Sequence record: OL960580
DNA: 64,000 nucleotides
DNA from: Escherichia phage vB_EcoM_SA21RB
Reading direction: 5' to 3' (one strand)
Shown here: positions 18,729 to 30,513 of the stretch, one piece after another
How positions within the stretch are numbered: the stretch's first letter is position 1
Layout of the letters: each line of letters begins with the position of its first letter
Position numbers and translations under genes: made by a program
The notes under the pieces: model-generated
Database searches by the model: none
Told to the model about the DNA's origin: nothing
Seen by the model: only the letters and a program-made list of their open reading frames with translations

Positions 18729-20822
18729 TTATCCTTGAACGAACTTGTAAGGCATGTTTGTAATATCTATGCAAGACGCAATAATTCCAAGAGATGATTC
18801 TACTTTTTGTTTAACATTTGATGAAACAAATGATGCAAAGTCAACTCTGTCTTCTATTTCAATATCACCTGTCATTGCAACTACTTCACCAGTTTCCATT
18901 AGACGGTCACCGTCATAAATTACTGATTCGGTGAGTTCTTCCGTAGTCATAACTTCAGCTTGAATGAGTTTTGTATTATTAGATGTTGTTCCGTCATTAT
19001 TAGAAGCATCAGTTATTTTATTAACTTTGACCATCAATCCGCGTGGTAGAATAACTTCAGCTTCTGTTGCTATTCCGAGACTTCCTGGATATACAACATT
19101 AACTTTATGTGCGCCGTCAATTGCCCATCCTATTTGAACTTTAACGTATTCAGGATTTTCTTTATACGCTCTTATTTCGTTTGGATTAATAGTTATTCCT
19201 TCTTCATTTTTATCAACTGTCAATTCATTACGAGCTTCTGGTTCTAAAAGACCAATACCAGCATGTGTAATTCCAAAACGTCCAAAAATGATAGGAGTTA
19301 AAGAAGTAGATACAAAATTTCTGAAATAGAACACTTTATTTTTAACTAGTGCTTCGTATATAGGAGCAGTCATACTTTGTGCACGATAAACTGTAATGCC
19401 TTCCGGTATACGGTCACCATTTTCAAAAGCTGAATCTAAGTTATTTATAGCAGATTCAATTTCTTTTTCACTCATTACATCATATCGTTCTGGATTGTAG
19501 CGTCCTAAAAGAAGATTATTGATGTCAGTATATCCTGAACCACAATACTCTCTAATGCCGCGCTTTTGTGATGGAGTATATTTAGAACCATCACGGGCAA
19601 TAGTAATATCAATCATTGGACCTGCACCAATTCCAGAAAAGCTATAAATCATTCGTTTGAGGAATTTAGTTTTTGCTGCGTTCCAGGAATTTTTAGTTAT
19701 TTCTTCCCAGACTTCATCTGGCTGTCCTTTACGGGTTTTATTATGTTTATCAAGCCAAGTATCTTTATATTCTTCAAAGAATTTATTAATAGCTGCTGCA
19801 TACTTCTCTAAACATTTTATTGAAGTAGTTGGTTCATTTTTGATCGCGTTAAAAATTACATCTTTAATTTTTTCAGAAACTTCATTAACCTCACTTTTTG
19901 AAAAGAATTTATAATCATAGTGAAGTTCATCTGCAGTTCCTTCAGCAATAATTTTTGCTGCCTTAGTTTTAGAAGCCAATGAATTAATTCCAAGTTTCAT
20001 TTCTTCTGCTTCAGGAATTAAAGGAGCGGTAGCAGGTTTATTGAAATTAGCTGCGGTAGATTCATACTTCTGGAATAATTCACTTTCAAATCTAGAAGAT
20101 TCCAATGACTGACTTTGTGCAATTGCTCTACGGGAAATTTTAACTTTAACGATTACAGCTTGGTCAGAACGTTTATCATTTTCTTGCGCAATAGATGCAG
20201 CAATTGCCTCATTTTTAGTTACTTGAGCTCCAGTATCTTTATTGATATAAACATCACCGACCTTCGATTCAACTTTAGTAAAGAGCTCGGTGCTAATTTC
20301 CGGAATTCCTGGAATGTCTTCTAGTGATACATTTTTGCGATGTATAAGAATATATGCATACTTTTTATCGTAATCCCAGAGTTCCTTAAGAAGGACGTAT
20401 CTGCCACCCGAACGACTACGGATAAGTCTATCAGCAATAACTTGAATTTGTCGAGCTTGACCAGCAGTTTTAGACTTAAGAATACGGAGCATACAGGCAT
20501 CAATTTTATACTGACGCATCGTCTGCATTGCAACAGTAAAAACTGAATTGATGTAATTAATTGGGCTTGGACCGAGACCTTTCAATTTAGCAATTGAACC
20601 TTTAGCAGTTAATGTAAAAGGAACAATATGCATCATTTTATCGCCCATTTTTAAATCGCGATTAGTATCACCTCCAGATGTATAGGTACATAAACGAAAG
20701 CCTGGTTGTTCAATTGCGTCATCAACATGAACTGAAAAAATTTGCGGTATTTTCTTCTTTGGATTTAAGTTTGTAATCGGAAGAGTAGTATCTTCGTCAA
20801 ATAATTCTGTAATAAGTTCCAT
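18729..20822 (-). CDS. alt: Alt ADP-ribosyltransferase (virion-packaged, injected)
   Basis: 697 aa from the second Met (MELITELFDEDTTLPITN...); ART motifs VYRAQ / FVSTSL / EAEVILPRG; near-identical to T4 Alt. Confidence 0.93.
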   Translation of the reverse strand: MELITELFDEDTTLPITNLNPKKKIPQIFSVHVDDAIEQPGFRLCTYTSGGDTNRDLKMGDKMMHIVPFTLTAKGSIAKLKGLGPSPINYINSVFTVAMQTMRQYKIDACMLRILKSKTAGQARQIQVIADRLIRSRSGGRYVLLKELWDYDKKYAYILIHRKNVSLEDIPGIPEISTELFTKVESKVGDVYINKDTGAQVTKNEAIAASIAQENDKRSDQAVIVKVKISRRAIAQSQSLESSRFESELFQKYESTAANFNKPATAPLIPEAEEMKLGINSLASKTKAAKIIAEGTADELHYDYKFFSKSEVNEVSEKIKDVIFNAIKNEPTTSIKCLEKYAAAINKFFEEYKDTWLDKHNKTRKGQPDEVWEEITKNSWNAAKTKFLKRMIYSFSGIGAGPMIDITIARDGSKYTPSQKRGIREYCGSGYTDINNLLLGRYNPERYDVMSEKEIESAINNLDSAFENGDRIPEGITVYRAQSMTAPIYEALVKNKVFYFRNFVSTSLTPIIFGRFGITHAGIGLLEPEARNELTVDKNEEGITINPNEIRAYKENPEYVKVQIGWAIDGAHKVNVVYPGSLGIATEAEVILPRGLMVKVNKITDASNNDGTTSNNTKLIQAEVMTTEELTESVIYDGDRLMETGEVVAMTGDIEIEDRVDFASFVSSNVKQKVESSLGIIASCIDITNMPYKFVQG

Positions 20823-20845
20823 CATAGCCTCTCTAGTGTTTATTC

Positions 20846-20853: not shown

Positions 20854-20858
20854 AAATT

Positions 20859-20876
20859 AAAGGCCCGAAGGCCTTT
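20859..20876 (-). terminator. hairpin terminator downstream of the ligase operon
   Basis: aaaggcc-cgaa-ggccttt stem-loop. Confidence 0.5.
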
Positions 20877-21063
20877 AGTAATCTAGTGGTAAGAGAGTAC
20901 GATATATTTCAAACTTTGGTCCTTTTTCATAGGCATCAAATGTTTCTGTAAATTTATTATAAGCATATGCATCTACAAATTCGAGAATGACTTGTGATAC
21001 AGAAGTAGAAACATCTCCACCTTCTTTTTGAGCAATGACAATTGTTTCTAAGTAAGCTTTCAT
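20875..21063 (-). CDS. hypothetical small protein
   Basis: 62 aa ORF, ATGA-coupled to the DNA ligase stop. Confidence 0.55.
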   Translation of the reverse strand: MKAYLETIVIAQKEGGDVSTSVSQVILEFVDAYAYNKFTETFDAYEKGPKFEIYRTLLPLDY

Positions 21064-22523
21064 AGACCAGTTACCTCATGAAAATCACCAAATACATCCT
21101 CGAATGTATTAGCTTTAGTTTTATCTTCGCGTAAACGAATCGCAATCGGAAGAAATAATTTAACGTAATCAGTGCGGCCATCAGATTTTAACCAACCATT
21201 GCATTCGCACTCTAGAATTTTTCCAATATAATAATTTTGGTTTTCCATAATGCGAGTACGGTCAAGTTCATGTGATTTTACACCGGCTTTATCTTTTAAG
21301 CCTGAACCAGCATTTACTTTAATTTTTCCACATTCTGATTCAAGAATAAATCCACCGGCTTTAGTAGGGTCTTTACGGTGAGGATAAATTCCTACAATTT
21401 TTAAATCAACATCAATTACTTCTTTAAATTTATAGAGATTTTTTGAACGAGCATTTTCCCACAATCCATCGGTATTTTTGAGAATAATACCTTCAAGACC
21501 TTGGTCAATATATTTTTTATAAATTACCTTAGCTTCATCTAGGTTATTTACTACCTGGTTTTCAATTAAAATTACTTTATCATATCCTGATGTCATTTGT
21601 TCTAGTTTAGAAAAACGTACATCATATTTTAAACGAAACGCCGGAAGACCGTATATTTCTACCAACGGGACATAATCCCAGACCTGAAACTTCATACATT
21701 GAGCTTCTTTTTCAGAAATGGTTCCTTTTAAGGATTTATTGGCGATTCCATTAGAAGTAGTACGAGATTCCGCTACTTCGGCGAATTCTTTAGCTTTACT
21801 AATTTCAGGATAAGCATCAAAAAGAAAATCTAGGCCTTCTGGTTCCTTTTTAACTTGCTCATGGTATACCAATTCGCCATCAATTAACACACCTTCTGGA
21901 TGAATCTGGCGGGCTTCAGCAGTCATTTTGATTAACTCTTCCTTAAGAAGATCTAATCCTAGATATTCATTACCAGCTCGTGATAAAAGACGAACATCAT
22001 CTAATTCATCGCCTCGGACTTCAGCAAAACACCGAGCTCCATCTGCTTTTAACTGCGCAAAGGCTGGAAACTTGATATTCTTACTAATGCCTTTTTCATC
22101 ATAAGAACTTGCCAGCATTTGAGGTTGTTCAGGAATTAAACCTGGCCAAACTTTATTTGCAATAGATACTGAAGCACCGCATTCAAGGTCTCGCATCATA
22201 ACTCGACGCAAAACTTCAACATCATCCTTTTTACCATCGGTGATATATCCAATTAATTCCTCAATTGCCGCATTTCCAGTCAATTTCCGAGTAGCTAACG
22301 TGAATTCAATGAAGTCAAGCATATCGGTAATAGTCAGCATTCCAAAACTCTGGGTAGCAATACCAGGTTTAGGCCATTTCTTGATATAATACTGTAACCC
22401 ACGAGAATAAGTTAGACGATATACTCGTTTAAGCAATTCATTATCTTTATTCTTTTCAAGAATTGCTTGCTTCTGCTTAGTTGATCCAATAGATGCTATT
22501 TCATTCAGAATTTTAAGAATCAT
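21060..22523 (-). CDS. 30: ATP-dependent DNA ligase gp30
   Basis: 487 aa; MILKILNEIASIGSTKQKQAILEKN...; KADG adenylation motif; near-identical to T4 DNA ligase. Confidence 0.96.
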   Translation of the reverse strand: MILKILNEIASIGSTKQKQAILEKNKDNELLKRVYRLTYSRGLQYYIKKWPKPGIATQSFGMLTITDMLDFIEFTLATRKLTGNAAIEELIGYITDGKKDDVEVLRRVMMRDLECGASVSIANKVWPGLIPEQPQMLASSYDEKGISKNIKFPAFAQLKADGARCFAEVRGDELDDVRLLSRAGNEYLGLDLLKEELIKMTAEARQIHPEGVLIDGELVYHEQVKKEPEGLDFLFDAYPEISKAKEFAEVAESRTTSNGIANKSLKGTISEKEAQCMKFQVWDYVPLVEIYGLPAFRLKYDVRFSKLEQMTSGYDKVILIENQVVNNLDEAKVIYKKYIDQGLEGIILKNTDGLWENARSKNLYKFKEVIDVDLKIVGIYPHRKDPTKAGGFILESECGKIKVNAGSGLKDKAGVKSHELDRTRIMENQNYYIGKILECECNGWLKSDGRTDYVKLFLPIAIRLREDKTKANTFEDVFGDFHEVTGL

Positions 22524-22789
22524 TGTTCATCCTTCAGAGTTTGATTTACAGCTCTATTATAAATCAATTCATCATTAAGCTCAGTCAAAGACTTATGATA
22601 TGTAGTTCTAACTTTATTTCCTTGCATCCAGTGCTTGATATAAATGAAACCTTGCTCTACGCATTTTTTAAAAATTCGTTCGTCTTTTTGAGCTCGGAAT
22701 TCTGGATTGCATCTAAAAAATTGATTTACGTGACCGTAATCACGCGTAGTATTACCTTCATTTTCATAAATAGTGTGAACGACAAACAT
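22520..22789 (-). CDS. hypothetical protein (position of T4 30.1)
   Basis: 89 aa ORF, ATGA-coupled. Confidence 0.6.
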   Translation of the reverse strand: MFVVHTIYENEGNTTRDYGHVNQFFRCNPEFRAQKDERIFKKCVEQGFIYIKHWMQGNKVRTTYHKSLTELNDELIYNRAVNQTLKDEQ

Positions 22790-23628
22790 TAGAATGCTCC
22801 TTGGAAAATATTATCACCACAAGTAGGTCTATTATACAAATACTCTATTCCACCAGGTTTAATATAGTTCCATGTCTGAAACGGATGTGTCTGATATGGA
22901 TGATATAGATGATTATAAGGATTAACTCCAGGTGTTCTCCAGGTAGTGTTCCAACGAAAAGAATCATTTTTAATCATCTTTTCAATTATATTTTTTATAG
23001 CTTTTTCGCTATCAAAACTTTCTTTATTTTCCTTTGGTGAAAAAAGCTTATTTTCTACATCATTCCATGTATAAACTCGCTGCGCAGTTTTTGGAATATT
23101 GTCACGCTCTCCTCGAGCCATCCAATAAACTGGAACATTTAATATTTCACTCGCGTGGTCGCAGTGGTGAGCGAGATCGTCAATATAACAAATTACGTTA
23201 TATTTCTCTTTTGCCTTTTTGAATAACTCTTCTTTTGAAGAATCATGACCACACATCATTACTTCTGAGAAGGCACCAGGAAAAAGAGCATTCAAATTAA
23301 ATTGACGATTCAGCAGAGCGTCAATAGAATCACCCAATGCTGTAACAGCTACAAAATTATAATCTTCTTTTAATTTGTTAATTACACACAGGGCATCTTT
23401 ATATGGAGACAAGTAACGAATAAAATCTGAACGATTGTATTTTTCAATTAACTTGACGCCAAGTTCTTCATCACAATTAAAGAGTTTACCTGGAGAAATA
23501 AATTTCTCATCTTGGATCATTTTTAAAATATGTTCTAATGGAAGATTATATTTCTGGGCAAAATAAGGAAGGCCTGATTGCCAGCTTAAACATACACCAT
23601 CAATATCAGTCAAAATAGTTGGCTTCAT
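22789..23628 (-). CDS. HAD-like phosphatase-fold protein (position of T4 30.2)
   Basis: 279 aa; N-terminal ILTDIDGV resembles HAD motif I (DxD). Confidence 0.65.
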   Translation of the reverse strand: MKPTILTDIDGVCLSWQSGLPYFAQKYNLPLEHILKMIQDEKFISPGKLFNCDEELGVKLIEKYNRSDFIRYLSPYKDALCVINKLKEDYNFVAVTALGDSIDALLNRQFNLNALFPGAFSEVMMCGHDSSKEELFKKAKEKYNVICYIDDLAHHCDHASEILNVPVYWMARGERDNIPKTAQRVYTWNDVENKLFSPKENKESFDSEKAIKNIIEKMIKNDSFRWNTTWRTPGVNPYNHLYHPYQTHPFQTWNYIKPGGIEYLYNRPTCGDNIFQGAF

Positions 23629-24083
23629 AGAGAGTCTCTTAATAGGTTTAACACATCAATAAATTCAGCTTCGGTTAGTATTGTATCATCTTTTGTTAGA
23701 CCACTAGCCATGCTGTGCTTCAAAACTTTTCCTTTCGAGGCTTGTAATGCATCGCGAAAGCCCTTATTTTGGATCGCTGCTTCAAAATATGCATTTGTGT
23801 ATAATTCTTTCCACGCCGGGGAGTATCTTGAAAACGGAACTCCAAGCCAAAAGAGGGTCCCACGGTCCTGAGCTCTAGCATAAGACCTTCCAGCTTGTTG
23901 GGCGGCAAGCCCGGATAACCCAAATATACGTCTTTGCTGTTCAACATTTTTCACCTTACACCCTTGGAGAAATCCTTCGAGACCTCCAAATTGGATACCA
24001 TCCATAACAAAAGGCCATTGGGCGAAATTACTTAATGCACATGATGGCCATCTAAAATTGCTTCTAATCTCTAATTCAGACAT
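23625..24083 (-). CDS. NADAR-domain protein (position of T4 30.3)
   Basis: 152 aa; LSNFAQWPF...DG...F motif matches the NADAR/YbiA (DUF1768) signature. Confidence 0.78.
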   Translation of the reverse strand: MSELEIRSNFRWPSCALSNFAQWPFVMDGIQFGGLEGFLQGCKVKNVEQQRRIFGLSGLAAQQAGRSYARAQDRGTLFWLGVPFSRYSPAWKELYTNAYFEAAIQNKGFRDALQASKGKVLKHSMASGLTKDDTILTEAEFIDVLNLLRDSL

Positions 24084-24291
24084 CTTTAATACTTATAATT
24101 TCAATATCAGCCCAATGACCATAACTTGGTAAACGGTCTTCAATAGATAATCCGCCATCATATTTAAGCATTTTAATTGTCATAATATATGGCTCTAAAT
24201 GGTCTTCAGTGAGCGGAGAGACATCAGTCACACGATAAGTAACTTCAACCATTTCCGTGCCCAGTAATTTCTGGATTAATTTCTTAAACAT
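24076..24291 (-). CDS. hypothetical protein (30.x cluster)
   Basis: 71 aa ORF, tightly packed. Confidence 0.55.
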   Translation of the reverse strand: MFKKLIQKLLGTEMVEVTYRVTDVSPLTEDHLEPYIMTIKMLKYDGGLSIEDRLPSYGHWADIEIISIKDV

Positions 24292-24295
24292 TTTA

Positions 24296-24583
24296 TTAAA
24301 ATCTCATCTGAAAACCGTGTGATTTAACATTACCGCCGCCGATATCAGAAATGTTAATTTCGCGCGCGATTGAAGGGTCAATGTCAATTTCACGATTGAG
24401 TTTAGTGATAGCTAAAGTATCGCGGCCATTTACAGTACGGAACTCTAAAGGGCAGACTACATTAACATAGTTTTTAATCGATTCACTGGTAGGCTGCAAA
24501 TGAGCAGGAAGGTCTTTAGGTGCCTTTGAGAAAACCACTTCACAGAAATTTTTGCGGGTATCAAAATAAGTAGTCATAAACAT
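24296..24583 (-). CDS. hypothetical protein (30.x cluster)
   Basis: 95 aa ORF. Confidence 0.55.
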   Translation of the reverse strand: MFMTTYFDTRKNFCEVVFSKAPKDLPAHLQPTSESIKNYVNVVCPLEFRTVNGRDTLAITKLNREIDIDPSIAREINISDIGGGNVKSHGFQMRF

Positions 24584-25058: not shown

Positions 25059-25391
25059 TTATTTTACTACTTTCCAGTGCTGCATGTCAAGTTTACCAAC
25101 TTTTTTCATCTTCTCAATTAAGCGTTCGGCACGTTGGCGAGCTGTAACATAATACCATTCACCCAATTCATTTTGTTCAATTTTTCCAACGATTACTGTA
25201 TTCAATTCATAAATCCAACCAGTAAAGAAATTATGAACTTGAATTGTAAAGGTGAAATCTGTTCCCATACCTTCTGTTGTTTCTACTTCAATAATATCAC
25301 CTTCAACTGCCATTAAGAACCACATAGTTTCATCATATTTACCATTGAAGCATTTAGTTTTAACTGTGGCGTTCAGATTAATCGTTTTCAT
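25059..25391 (-). CDS. hypothetical protein (30.x cluster)
   Basis: 110 aa ORF downstream of an early promoter. Confidence 0.6.
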   Translation of the reverse strand: MKTINLNATVKTKCFNGKYDETMWFLMAVEGDIIEVETTEGMGTDFTFTIQVHNFFTGWIYELNTVIVGKIEQNELGEWYYVTARQRAERLIEKMKKVGKLDMQHWKVVK

Positions 25392-25448: not shown

Positions 25449-25477
25449 AACTTTGTGCAATCTTTGGAAAATAAAAA

Positions 25478-25497
25478 AGGACTCCCGAAGGAGTCCT
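25478..25497 (-). terminator. strong intrinsic terminator
   Basis: minus strand aggactcc-ttcg-ggagtcct followed by TTTTTTATTTT, directly after the small basic ORF stop. Confidence 0.7.
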
Positions 25498-25501
25498 CAA
25501 C

Positions 25502-29098: not shown

Positions 29099-30513
<1,415 letters not shown>

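Follow-up and report, generated by a model that had tools for sequence, protein, structure and literature searches.

The locus examined here very likely comprises two separate early genes, adfN, which acts against DarTG1, and gene 30.2, which encodes a phosphatase of the HAD superfamily, with AdfN working independently of gp30.2, DNA ligase and Pnk. Both lie on the minus strand of the window, by which we mean the whole stretch of 64,000 nucleotides of Escherichia phage vB_EcoM_SA21RB (record OL960580) that was analysed. Judged by its sequence, the 152-residue product of the first gene is T4 AdfN (gp30.3), a protein already characterised; the 279-residue product of the second is, by its motifs and predicted fold, a real HAD-type phosphatase, which is uncharacterised. 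An earlier sequence-only reading of this DNA had joined the two proteins with the ligase and with Pnk/Rnl enzymes into a single damage-reversal module.

The window phage is of the T4 type and belongs to Tequatrovirus. A search with the 2-kb region gave 697 matching phage records, almost all of them Escherichia or Shigella Tequatrovirus, with 97% nucleotide identity for the best. As transcribed from the minus strand, the gene order is 30.4, 30.3 (NADAR), 30.2 (HAD), 30.1, 30 (ligase), alt.1 and alt. In a gene-by-gene comparison, most genes from 30 to pseT showed 96–100% identity to their T4 counterparts: 100% for rIII, 99% for gp30.3, cd and 31, 98.6% for the ligase (gp30), 97% for gp30.2 and 96% for pseT, with alt.1 at 90%. 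Just upstream of adfN, however, the window phage departs from T4: 30.4 is divergent (49% identity) and 30.5, present in T4, is absent.

The gene adfN (gene 30.3, 152 aa) occupies positions 23625..24083 on the minus strand and was assigned as a phage-type NADAR gene from the ORF and its T4 match, and gene 30.2 (279 aa) follows at 22789..23628 on the same strand, its product having a C1 cap and a disordered tail in addition to the HAD core. Both frames had been placed correctly before (24083..23625 and 23628..22789, minus strand), and the ATGA coupling described for them is indeed read from the sequence at 23625..23628, where the TGA of 30.3 (23627-23625) overlaps the ATG of 30.2 (23628-23626). 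The start of gene 30.1 (22520..22789, minus strand; DUF3045, 89 aa), which lies between gp30.2 and the ligase, shares 1 nt with the stop of 30.2 (TAATG). Gene 30 itself (21060..22523, minus strand) encodes an ATP-dependent DNA ligase of 487 aa (PF01068; 98.6% to T4 gp30) that overlaps 30.1 by 4 nt and alt.1 by 4 nt. Directly upstream of adfN, with an overlap of 8 nt, lies gene 30.4 (24076..24291, minus strand; 71 aa), for which no family match was found. The two ORFs had been described as lying directly downstream of DNA ligase, which is wrong: transcription reaches the ligase gene (22523..21060) only after 30.3, 30.2 and 30.1, which places both ORFs upstream of it, with 30.1 between 30.2 and the ligase. 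Within adfN, and out of frame with it, an ORF of 75 aa named 30.3' (23720..23947, minus strand) is annotated in T4; when checked, it showed no independent conservation or selective constraint.

The claim that these genes share an operon with the ligase fares better than the order given for them. Neighbouring genes from 30.4 through alt.1 overlap by 1–8 nt, and the scan for terminator-like hairpins gave none on the minus strand from 24083 down to 21060; it is therefore plausible that adfN, 30.2 and the ligase gene belong to one transcription unit. The first minus-strand terminator-like site downstream of adfN is a hairpin just past alt.1 (20858..20877, read 20877-20858), identified by consensus match only. 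The best promoter-like match upstream of the gene string is a sigma-70-like sequence, TTGACA-18-TAAAAT (25061..25090, minus strand), which agrees with the consensus at 11 of 12 positions and is likewise a consensus match only; since promoter-like sites in the region are not more numerous than expected from shuffled sequence, such promoter calls are merely suggestive. The only ADP-ribosyltransferase nearby is Alt (PF03496), encoded 2.8 kb downstream of the NADAR gene.

The identity of the 152-residue protein rests on a nearly complete match to T4 gp30.3. The two proteins have the same length and are identical at 151 of 152 residues, the sole change being I125M; residue 125, two residues past the catalytic H123, is isoleucine in T4 and methionine in the window protein, and methionine is also the family consensus. 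PF08010 (Phage_30_3) matches the protein over model positions 1–138 of 138 with 235.3 bits (cutoff 36). The NADAR/YbiA signature noted in the sequence-only reading is present as well: the protein contains ALSNFAQWPFVMDGIQFGGLEGF, whose counterpart in the alignment is FSNFAAWPIKVDG...EHYFQ in E. coli YbiA. In the profile alignment, LSNFA..PF..DG....EGFLQ..K of the AdfN family corresponds to FSNFAAWPIKVDG....EHYFQAQK of YbiA, and the family profile finds YbiA (2b3w) with an E-value of 0.006. The general NADAR model PF08719 does not match the window protein even at E-values up to 10, and 18 of the 44 family members match it (best E 1.5e-7). PADLOC returned no match for AdfN, single-sequence searches of AdfN and gp30.2 against PDB sequences gave chance-level matches only, and in PHROGs the two families carry the label ‘unknown function’.

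The AlphaFold2 model of AdfN (pLDDT 93.6) predicts a NADAR fold, that is, a helical core flanked by small β-hairpins. The three top Foldseek matches in the PDB are all NADARs, namely 2b3w (E 2e-5), 8bau and 8bat, at probabilities of 0.99–1.00, and all other PDB matches have E-values above 1; the structural comparison to characterised NADARs proposed earlier thus points to these three structures and to no others. The catalytic residues, whose loss on alignment would have spoken against the assignment, are E36, K43 and H123, and all three are present. Their codons lie on the minus strand at 23976-23978, 23955-23957 and 23715-23717, respectively. Neither E36 nor H123 varies across 44–45 AdfN homologues with identities down to 35%, and K43 is conserved in at least 90% of them. 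The C-terminal helix is also intact, spanning residues 138–151 in the model, and the sequence ends in ...EFIDVLNLLRDSL as in T4.

T4 AdfN is thus the closest characterised counterpart, sharing the position between 30.4 and 30.2, the E36/K43/H123 set and the C-terminal helix. E. coli YbiA (2b3w) and the Phytophthora NADAR (8bau), both PF08719 proteins, are the best structural matches (E 2e-5, TM 0.66); they have the motif SNFA..P...DG....E.F.Q.K in common with AdfN at about 15–18% identity, and YbiA-type enzymes carry a glutamate where AdfN has H123. With DarG1, the NADAR antitoxin of DarTG1 (Geobacter lovleyi, 8bat; E. coli C7), AdfN shares the fold and the removal of ADP-ribose from guanine. 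In contrast to DarG1, AdfN consists of the core domain only, has a histidine instead of an aspartate at the catalytic position of the last strand, and stands as an orphan without a DarT gene beside it: no DarT1 toxin was found beside the gene in the window, where the neighbours are 30.4 and the HAD protein gp30.2 and PADLOC gave 0 matches. A catalytic histidine in the last strand is the hallmark of phage NADARs according to published biochemistry.

What such a protein does is well established for T4. DarTG1 resistance of T-even phages was mapped to gene 30.3, which was renamed adfN, for anti-DarT factor NADAR (Johannesman et al., bioRxiv 2024 PMC11257639; Nat Commun 2025;16:1598 PMC11825919). 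In the same work, deletion of adfN rendered T4 and T2 about 10^4-fold (about 4 logs) sensitive to DarTG1, AdfN expressed alone from a plasmid in trans fully restored plating of RB69 on DarTG1 cells, the E36A and K43A substitutions in T4 AdfN abolished the rescue, and purified AdfN stripped ADP-ribose from DarT1-modified DNA (PMC11257639 / PMC11825919). The RB69 allele, which is 15 residues shorter, was inactive (PMC11257639 / PMC11825919). Independent biochemistry on T4 gp30.3 found that guanine-ADPr is hydrolysed and thymine-ADPr and cytosine-ADPr are not. Published work shows T4 AdfN to be a guanine-specific DNA ADP-ribosylglycohydrolase (Nat Commun 2025;16:1598; Toxins 2024;16:208; Mol Cell 2023;83:2303). 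That a NADAR protein reverses ADP-ribosylation of DNA bases and so counters a host defence, as had been suggested for the window protein, is therefore the published function of a T4 protein that differs from it at one residue. The proposed rescue of cells from a DarT-type toxin, on the other hand, has a published answer that is negative for T4 AdfN: it did not neutralise DarT1 in uninfected cells, and it did not counter the thymine-specific DarTG2 (PMC11257639 / PMC11825919).

The mechanism has been demonstrated experimentally for T4 AdfN, and we infer it for the window copy because of the 99% identity and the intact catalytic residues and C-terminal helix. AdfN of the window phage would use E36, K43 and H123 to hydrolyse the N-glycosidic bond that joins ADP-ribose to guanine in the phage DNA, and would in this way undo the modification set by the host DarT1 toxin and allow the phage to replicate in DarTG1-carrying cells. 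A different role has been proposed for phage NADARs, in which they mainly degrade soluble ADP-ribose-derived immune signals or by-products of RNA repair rather than DNA adducts (PMC9503650). That proposal draws on a comparative-genomic argument (PMC9503650), and the early expression of the NADAR gene in the same gene string as Alt, 2.8 kb downstream, would fit it. The genetics and biochemistry of the 99%-identical T4 protein, with removal of ADP-ribose from guanine in DNA and counter-defence against DarTG1, contradict it as the primary role of this NADAR; in that form the proposal is already largely refuted, and we regard it as extremely unlikely. With DNA-guanine ADP-ribosylglycohydrolase activity as the preferred reading, the window gene adds merely another intact allele of a gene whose anti-DarT function is already proven in T4.

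The product of the second gene begins with MKPTILTDIDGV, a HAD motif I, and the HAD-type assignment made earlier from this N-terminal motif is borne out by the full motif set and the fold model. Motif I is D8-I-D10-G-V (codons for D8 at 23605-23607 and for D10 at 23599-23601, minus strand), motif II is T96, motif III is K132 and motif IV is D150-D151. An alignment of 31 homologues shows no variation at D8, D10, K132, D150 or D151 and at least 90% conservation of T96, and the motifs are mostly kept in 50 more distant sequences. The conserved part of the protein in the 31-homologue alignment runs from residue 1 to about 195. The AlphaFold2 model has a pLDDT above 90 over residues 1–190 and below 50 over residues 223–279, which are disordered. 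It consists of a Rossmannoid core with four helices (residues 16–65) inserted after strand 1, an arrangement that constitutes a C1 cap; the HAD part with its cap would extend to residue ~197 and be followed by a disordered tail of about 80 aa. Homologues of gp30.2 are widespread among the T4-like phages: one search gave 100 cluster representatives, and another gave 1,439 phage records.

No model in Pfam, NCBIfam or PADLOC was matched by the window protein, and PHROG family 420, to which it belongs, has no assigned function; our literature search found no published function for gp30.2/gene 30.2 or for T4-like deoxyribonucleotidases. The nearest family is that of the NT5C 5'(3')-deoxyribonucleotidases (cdN/mdN, 2jao, 6g2n; S. 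epidermidis 3bwv; PF06941), with an identity to gp30.2 of 17–21%. The gp30.2 family profile finds mouse dNT-1 (2jao) with an E-value of 0.022. PF06941 (NT5C) does not match window gp30.2 itself, is weakly matched by 6 of 31 close relatives, and is matched by 24 of 49 sampled distant relatives, with a best E-value of 4e-10 and several matches above the gathering threshold. The link to NT5C thus appears weak but consistent, and transitive. An exhaustive profile search recovered 1,423 representatives, the majority of which stand alone and are about 195 aa long; where distant relatives carry domain fusions (P0255, P0314, P0206 and P0243), no recognisable partner domain was found. Unlike NT5C enzymes, gp30.2 adds the disordered tail of ~80 aa, which contains a conserved motif.

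The same phage encodes a second HAD phosphatase domain, that of T4 PseT (Pnk), and both proteins share the nucleophile motif D-x-D-G-[TV]. We considered a Pnk-like polynucleotide 3'-phosphatase as an identity for gp30.2 and rejected it: the likeness is limited to motif I (hhalign probability 14%), and gp30.2 has a C1 cap. Four-helix C1 caps are typical of HADs that act on small molecules. Taken from its motifs and its model, gp30.2 is predicted to be a C1-capped HAD phosphatase that is competent for catalysis and sits on a divergent branch related to NT5C. It is probably an active small-molecule phosphatase with a nucleotide as its predicted substrate; most likely it would dephosphorylate a small phosphorylated metabolite, probably a nucleotide, where the assignment of the substrate is a guess.

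Do the two genes nevertheless act together? The module suggested by the sequence-only reading would be one nucleic-acid damage-reversal pathway made up of NADAR, HAD, ligase and Pnk/Rnl enzymes. In such a pathway, NADAR would remove ADP-ribose, the HAD protein would process the released ADP-ribose-derived phosphate ester or a damaged DNA end, and the ligase would seal the strand. The translational coupling of the genes, which form one string uninterrupted by any terminator-like site, would suit this idea. Its other attractions come from the comparison of loci. We sampled 78 viral loci that encode gp30.2 relatives, in windows of ±6 kb; given the phylogenetic redundancy of these loci, the counts describe the sample and carry no statistical weight. 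Wherever the NADAR gene is near gp30.2 it is on the same strand and no more than about 1.5 kb upstream, including in distant Aeromonas and Acinetobacter phages, a placement that thus holds across distant T4-like phages. The two families are also distributed over nearly the same host genera (1,439 phage records for gp30.2 and 1,510 for gp30.3). Set against this, only 37–38 of the 78 loci have a gp30.3-family gene within 6 kb, so that about half of them are without one, whereas 70 of the 78, or 90%, encode an ATP-dependent ligase directly after gp30.2 on the same strand, often with an overlap. The conserved partner of gp30.2 is DNA ligase rather than NADAR. In KVP40, gene 30.3 stands beside a-gt.4, at 41 kb. 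Distant gp30.2 loci without ligase have PhoH, a PD-(D/E)XK nuclease, gp59 and UvsX as neighbours; these are general T4-type DNA-metabolism genes and are uninformative on the substrate.

Further points weigh against the module. AdfN alone is necessary and sufficient for counter-defence against DarTG1, which in the proposed mechanism would need neither gp30.2 nor ligase nor Pnk. Hydrolysis by NADAR restores an intact base, and therefore no strand break arises that would have to be healed or sealed, and no nick is left for the other enzymes of the module. Pnk, which had been called nearby, is encoded by pseT at 30193..29291, 5.2 kb upstream of adfN, behind rIII, 31 and cd; genes 30.4-30.9, rIII, 31, 31.1, 31.2, cd and cd.1-cd.5 lie in between. 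No role has been assigned to gp30.2 in the literature found. Because AdfN suffices alone, the base is left intact and pseT is 5.2 kb off, the NADAR–HAD–ligase–Pnk/Rnl repair module is not supported, and we consider it very unlikely. The tight packing of adfN and 30.2 reflects the usual layout of T4 early genes. The same-strand upstream placement and the matching distribution over genera make it conceivable that gp30.2 and AdfN are linked functionally in some looser way, but nothing found here supports such a link. Two separate early genes thus remain the reading that we prefer.

The tail of gp30.2 raises another idea about its place of action. Within the disordered region, residues 259–269 form the motif GGIEYLYNRPT (22822..22854, minus strand), a conserved element and candidate gp45-binding site. 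In the gp30.2 alignment the rest of the tail is variable, and the motif recurs in variants such as GTGIEYLNRQPT, GIEYWYNQPT and similar ones. Of 57 long-tailed representatives, 17 have the pattern [IVLT]EY[LWYM] in their tails, whereas shuffling the tails yields 0.5 such cases on average and at most 3. The gp45 clamp-binding motif LDFLF is known from T4 ligase (EPEGLDFLFD) and from the C-terminus of gp43 (EKASLDFLFG) (PMC6212786), and IEYLY of gp30.2 is a conservative variant of it. A search for [LIVM][DE][FYW][LM][FYW] in every window ORF with 60 aa or more matched only the ligase (residue 231) and gp30.2 (residue 261).

Could gp30.2 then be tethered to gp45 through GGIEYLYNRPT and be a partner of ligase at the replication fork, where it might, for instance, take off a ligation-blocking phosphate or sanitise nucleotides locally? 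The resemblance to the gp45-binding motif of ligase and gp43, the conservation of the motif far beyond shuffled expectation in a tail that is yet disordered, and the gp30.2–ligase synteny at 70 of the 78 loci, with genes often overlapping, would all agree with this prediction. However, the fifth position of the motif is often N or M instead of an aromatic residue, many homologues have no tail or no motif, and both its C1 cap and the structures that match it best indicate small-molecule substrates. We consider such a tether unlikely. It is equally unlikely, in our judgement, that gp30.2 is a clamp-tethered phosphatase and not a free nucleotidase, working with the ligase or clearing phosphorylated products that arise as AdfN removes ADP-ribose from replicating DNA. 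A small-molecule phosphatase, probably acting on a nucleotide, stays our preferred assignment for gp30.2.

In summary, the core NADAR finding of the earlier reading was right, yet it had already been published for T4 AdfN. The part of the locus with more to add to T4 biology is gp30.2, a motif-intact HAD phosphatase that is present in more than 1,400 sequenced T4-like phages and is encoded almost always just upstream of the ligase. If the tail did bind the clamp, gp30.2 would be a fourth enzyme of the T4 clamp ‘tool-belt’. To know its substrate, and whether its tail binds the clamp, would close a gap in the set of T4 genes for replication and nucleotide metabolism, which is otherwise well mapped.

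The genes from 30.8 to alt.1 form a string that is flanked by two GC-rich terminator-like hairpins on the minus strand, at 25477-25498 at one end and at 20858-20877 at the other, both identified as consensus matches. A strong sigma-70-like match (11/12; 25090-25061, minus strand), likewise a consensus match, lies within the end of 30.8. The Alt ADP-ribosyltransferase homologue (18729-20825, minus strand) belongs to the gene string that includes adfN and is encoded 2.8 kb downstream of that gene; at 698 aa it is longer than the annotated T4 Alt CDS of 682 aa (T4 record 123454-125502).

Immediately 5′ of adfN, the minus-strand stretch 24076-24583 displays local mosaicism. The 30.4 product of the window is only 49% identical to that of T4, compared to 72-90% identity to those of other phages. 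Moreover, gene 30.5 of T4 is missing in the window, and therefore 30.4 is directly adjacent to 30.6.

In gp30.2, the HAD phosphatase, the disordered tail contains a conserved short motif, GGIEYLYNRPT (residues 259-269; 22822-22854, minus strand), which is similar to LDFLF, the gp45 clamp-binding motif of T4 ligase and gp43. The motif is enriched among homologue tails, occurring in 17 of 57 where about 0.5 would be expected.

Within adfN, the out-of-frame ORF 30.3′ (23720-23947, minus strand), which is annotated in T4, shows no sign of purifying selection of its own in two comparisons: its identity to T4 is 92% while that of the AdfN frame there is 99%, and in the Mosigvirus-like loci L006-L014 its start codon is gone or a stop is present.

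In the methods of the Toxins 2024 paper (PMC11125620), the T4 NADAR construct is given as “gp30.3; residues 1-208”, a range exceeding the 152 aa that gp30.3 of T4 and the ORF in the window each have.

In many T4-like phages, among the viral loci L002-L079 and the homologue matches, gp30.3 ORFs are truncated or fused, with lengths of 83-126 aa (for example homologues P0104-P0107 and P0113-P0118, and locus L012). The frequency of such ORFs suggests that adfN is often inactivated in nature, and the presumed inactivation in these phages would resemble the published gp30.3 frameshift of RB69.
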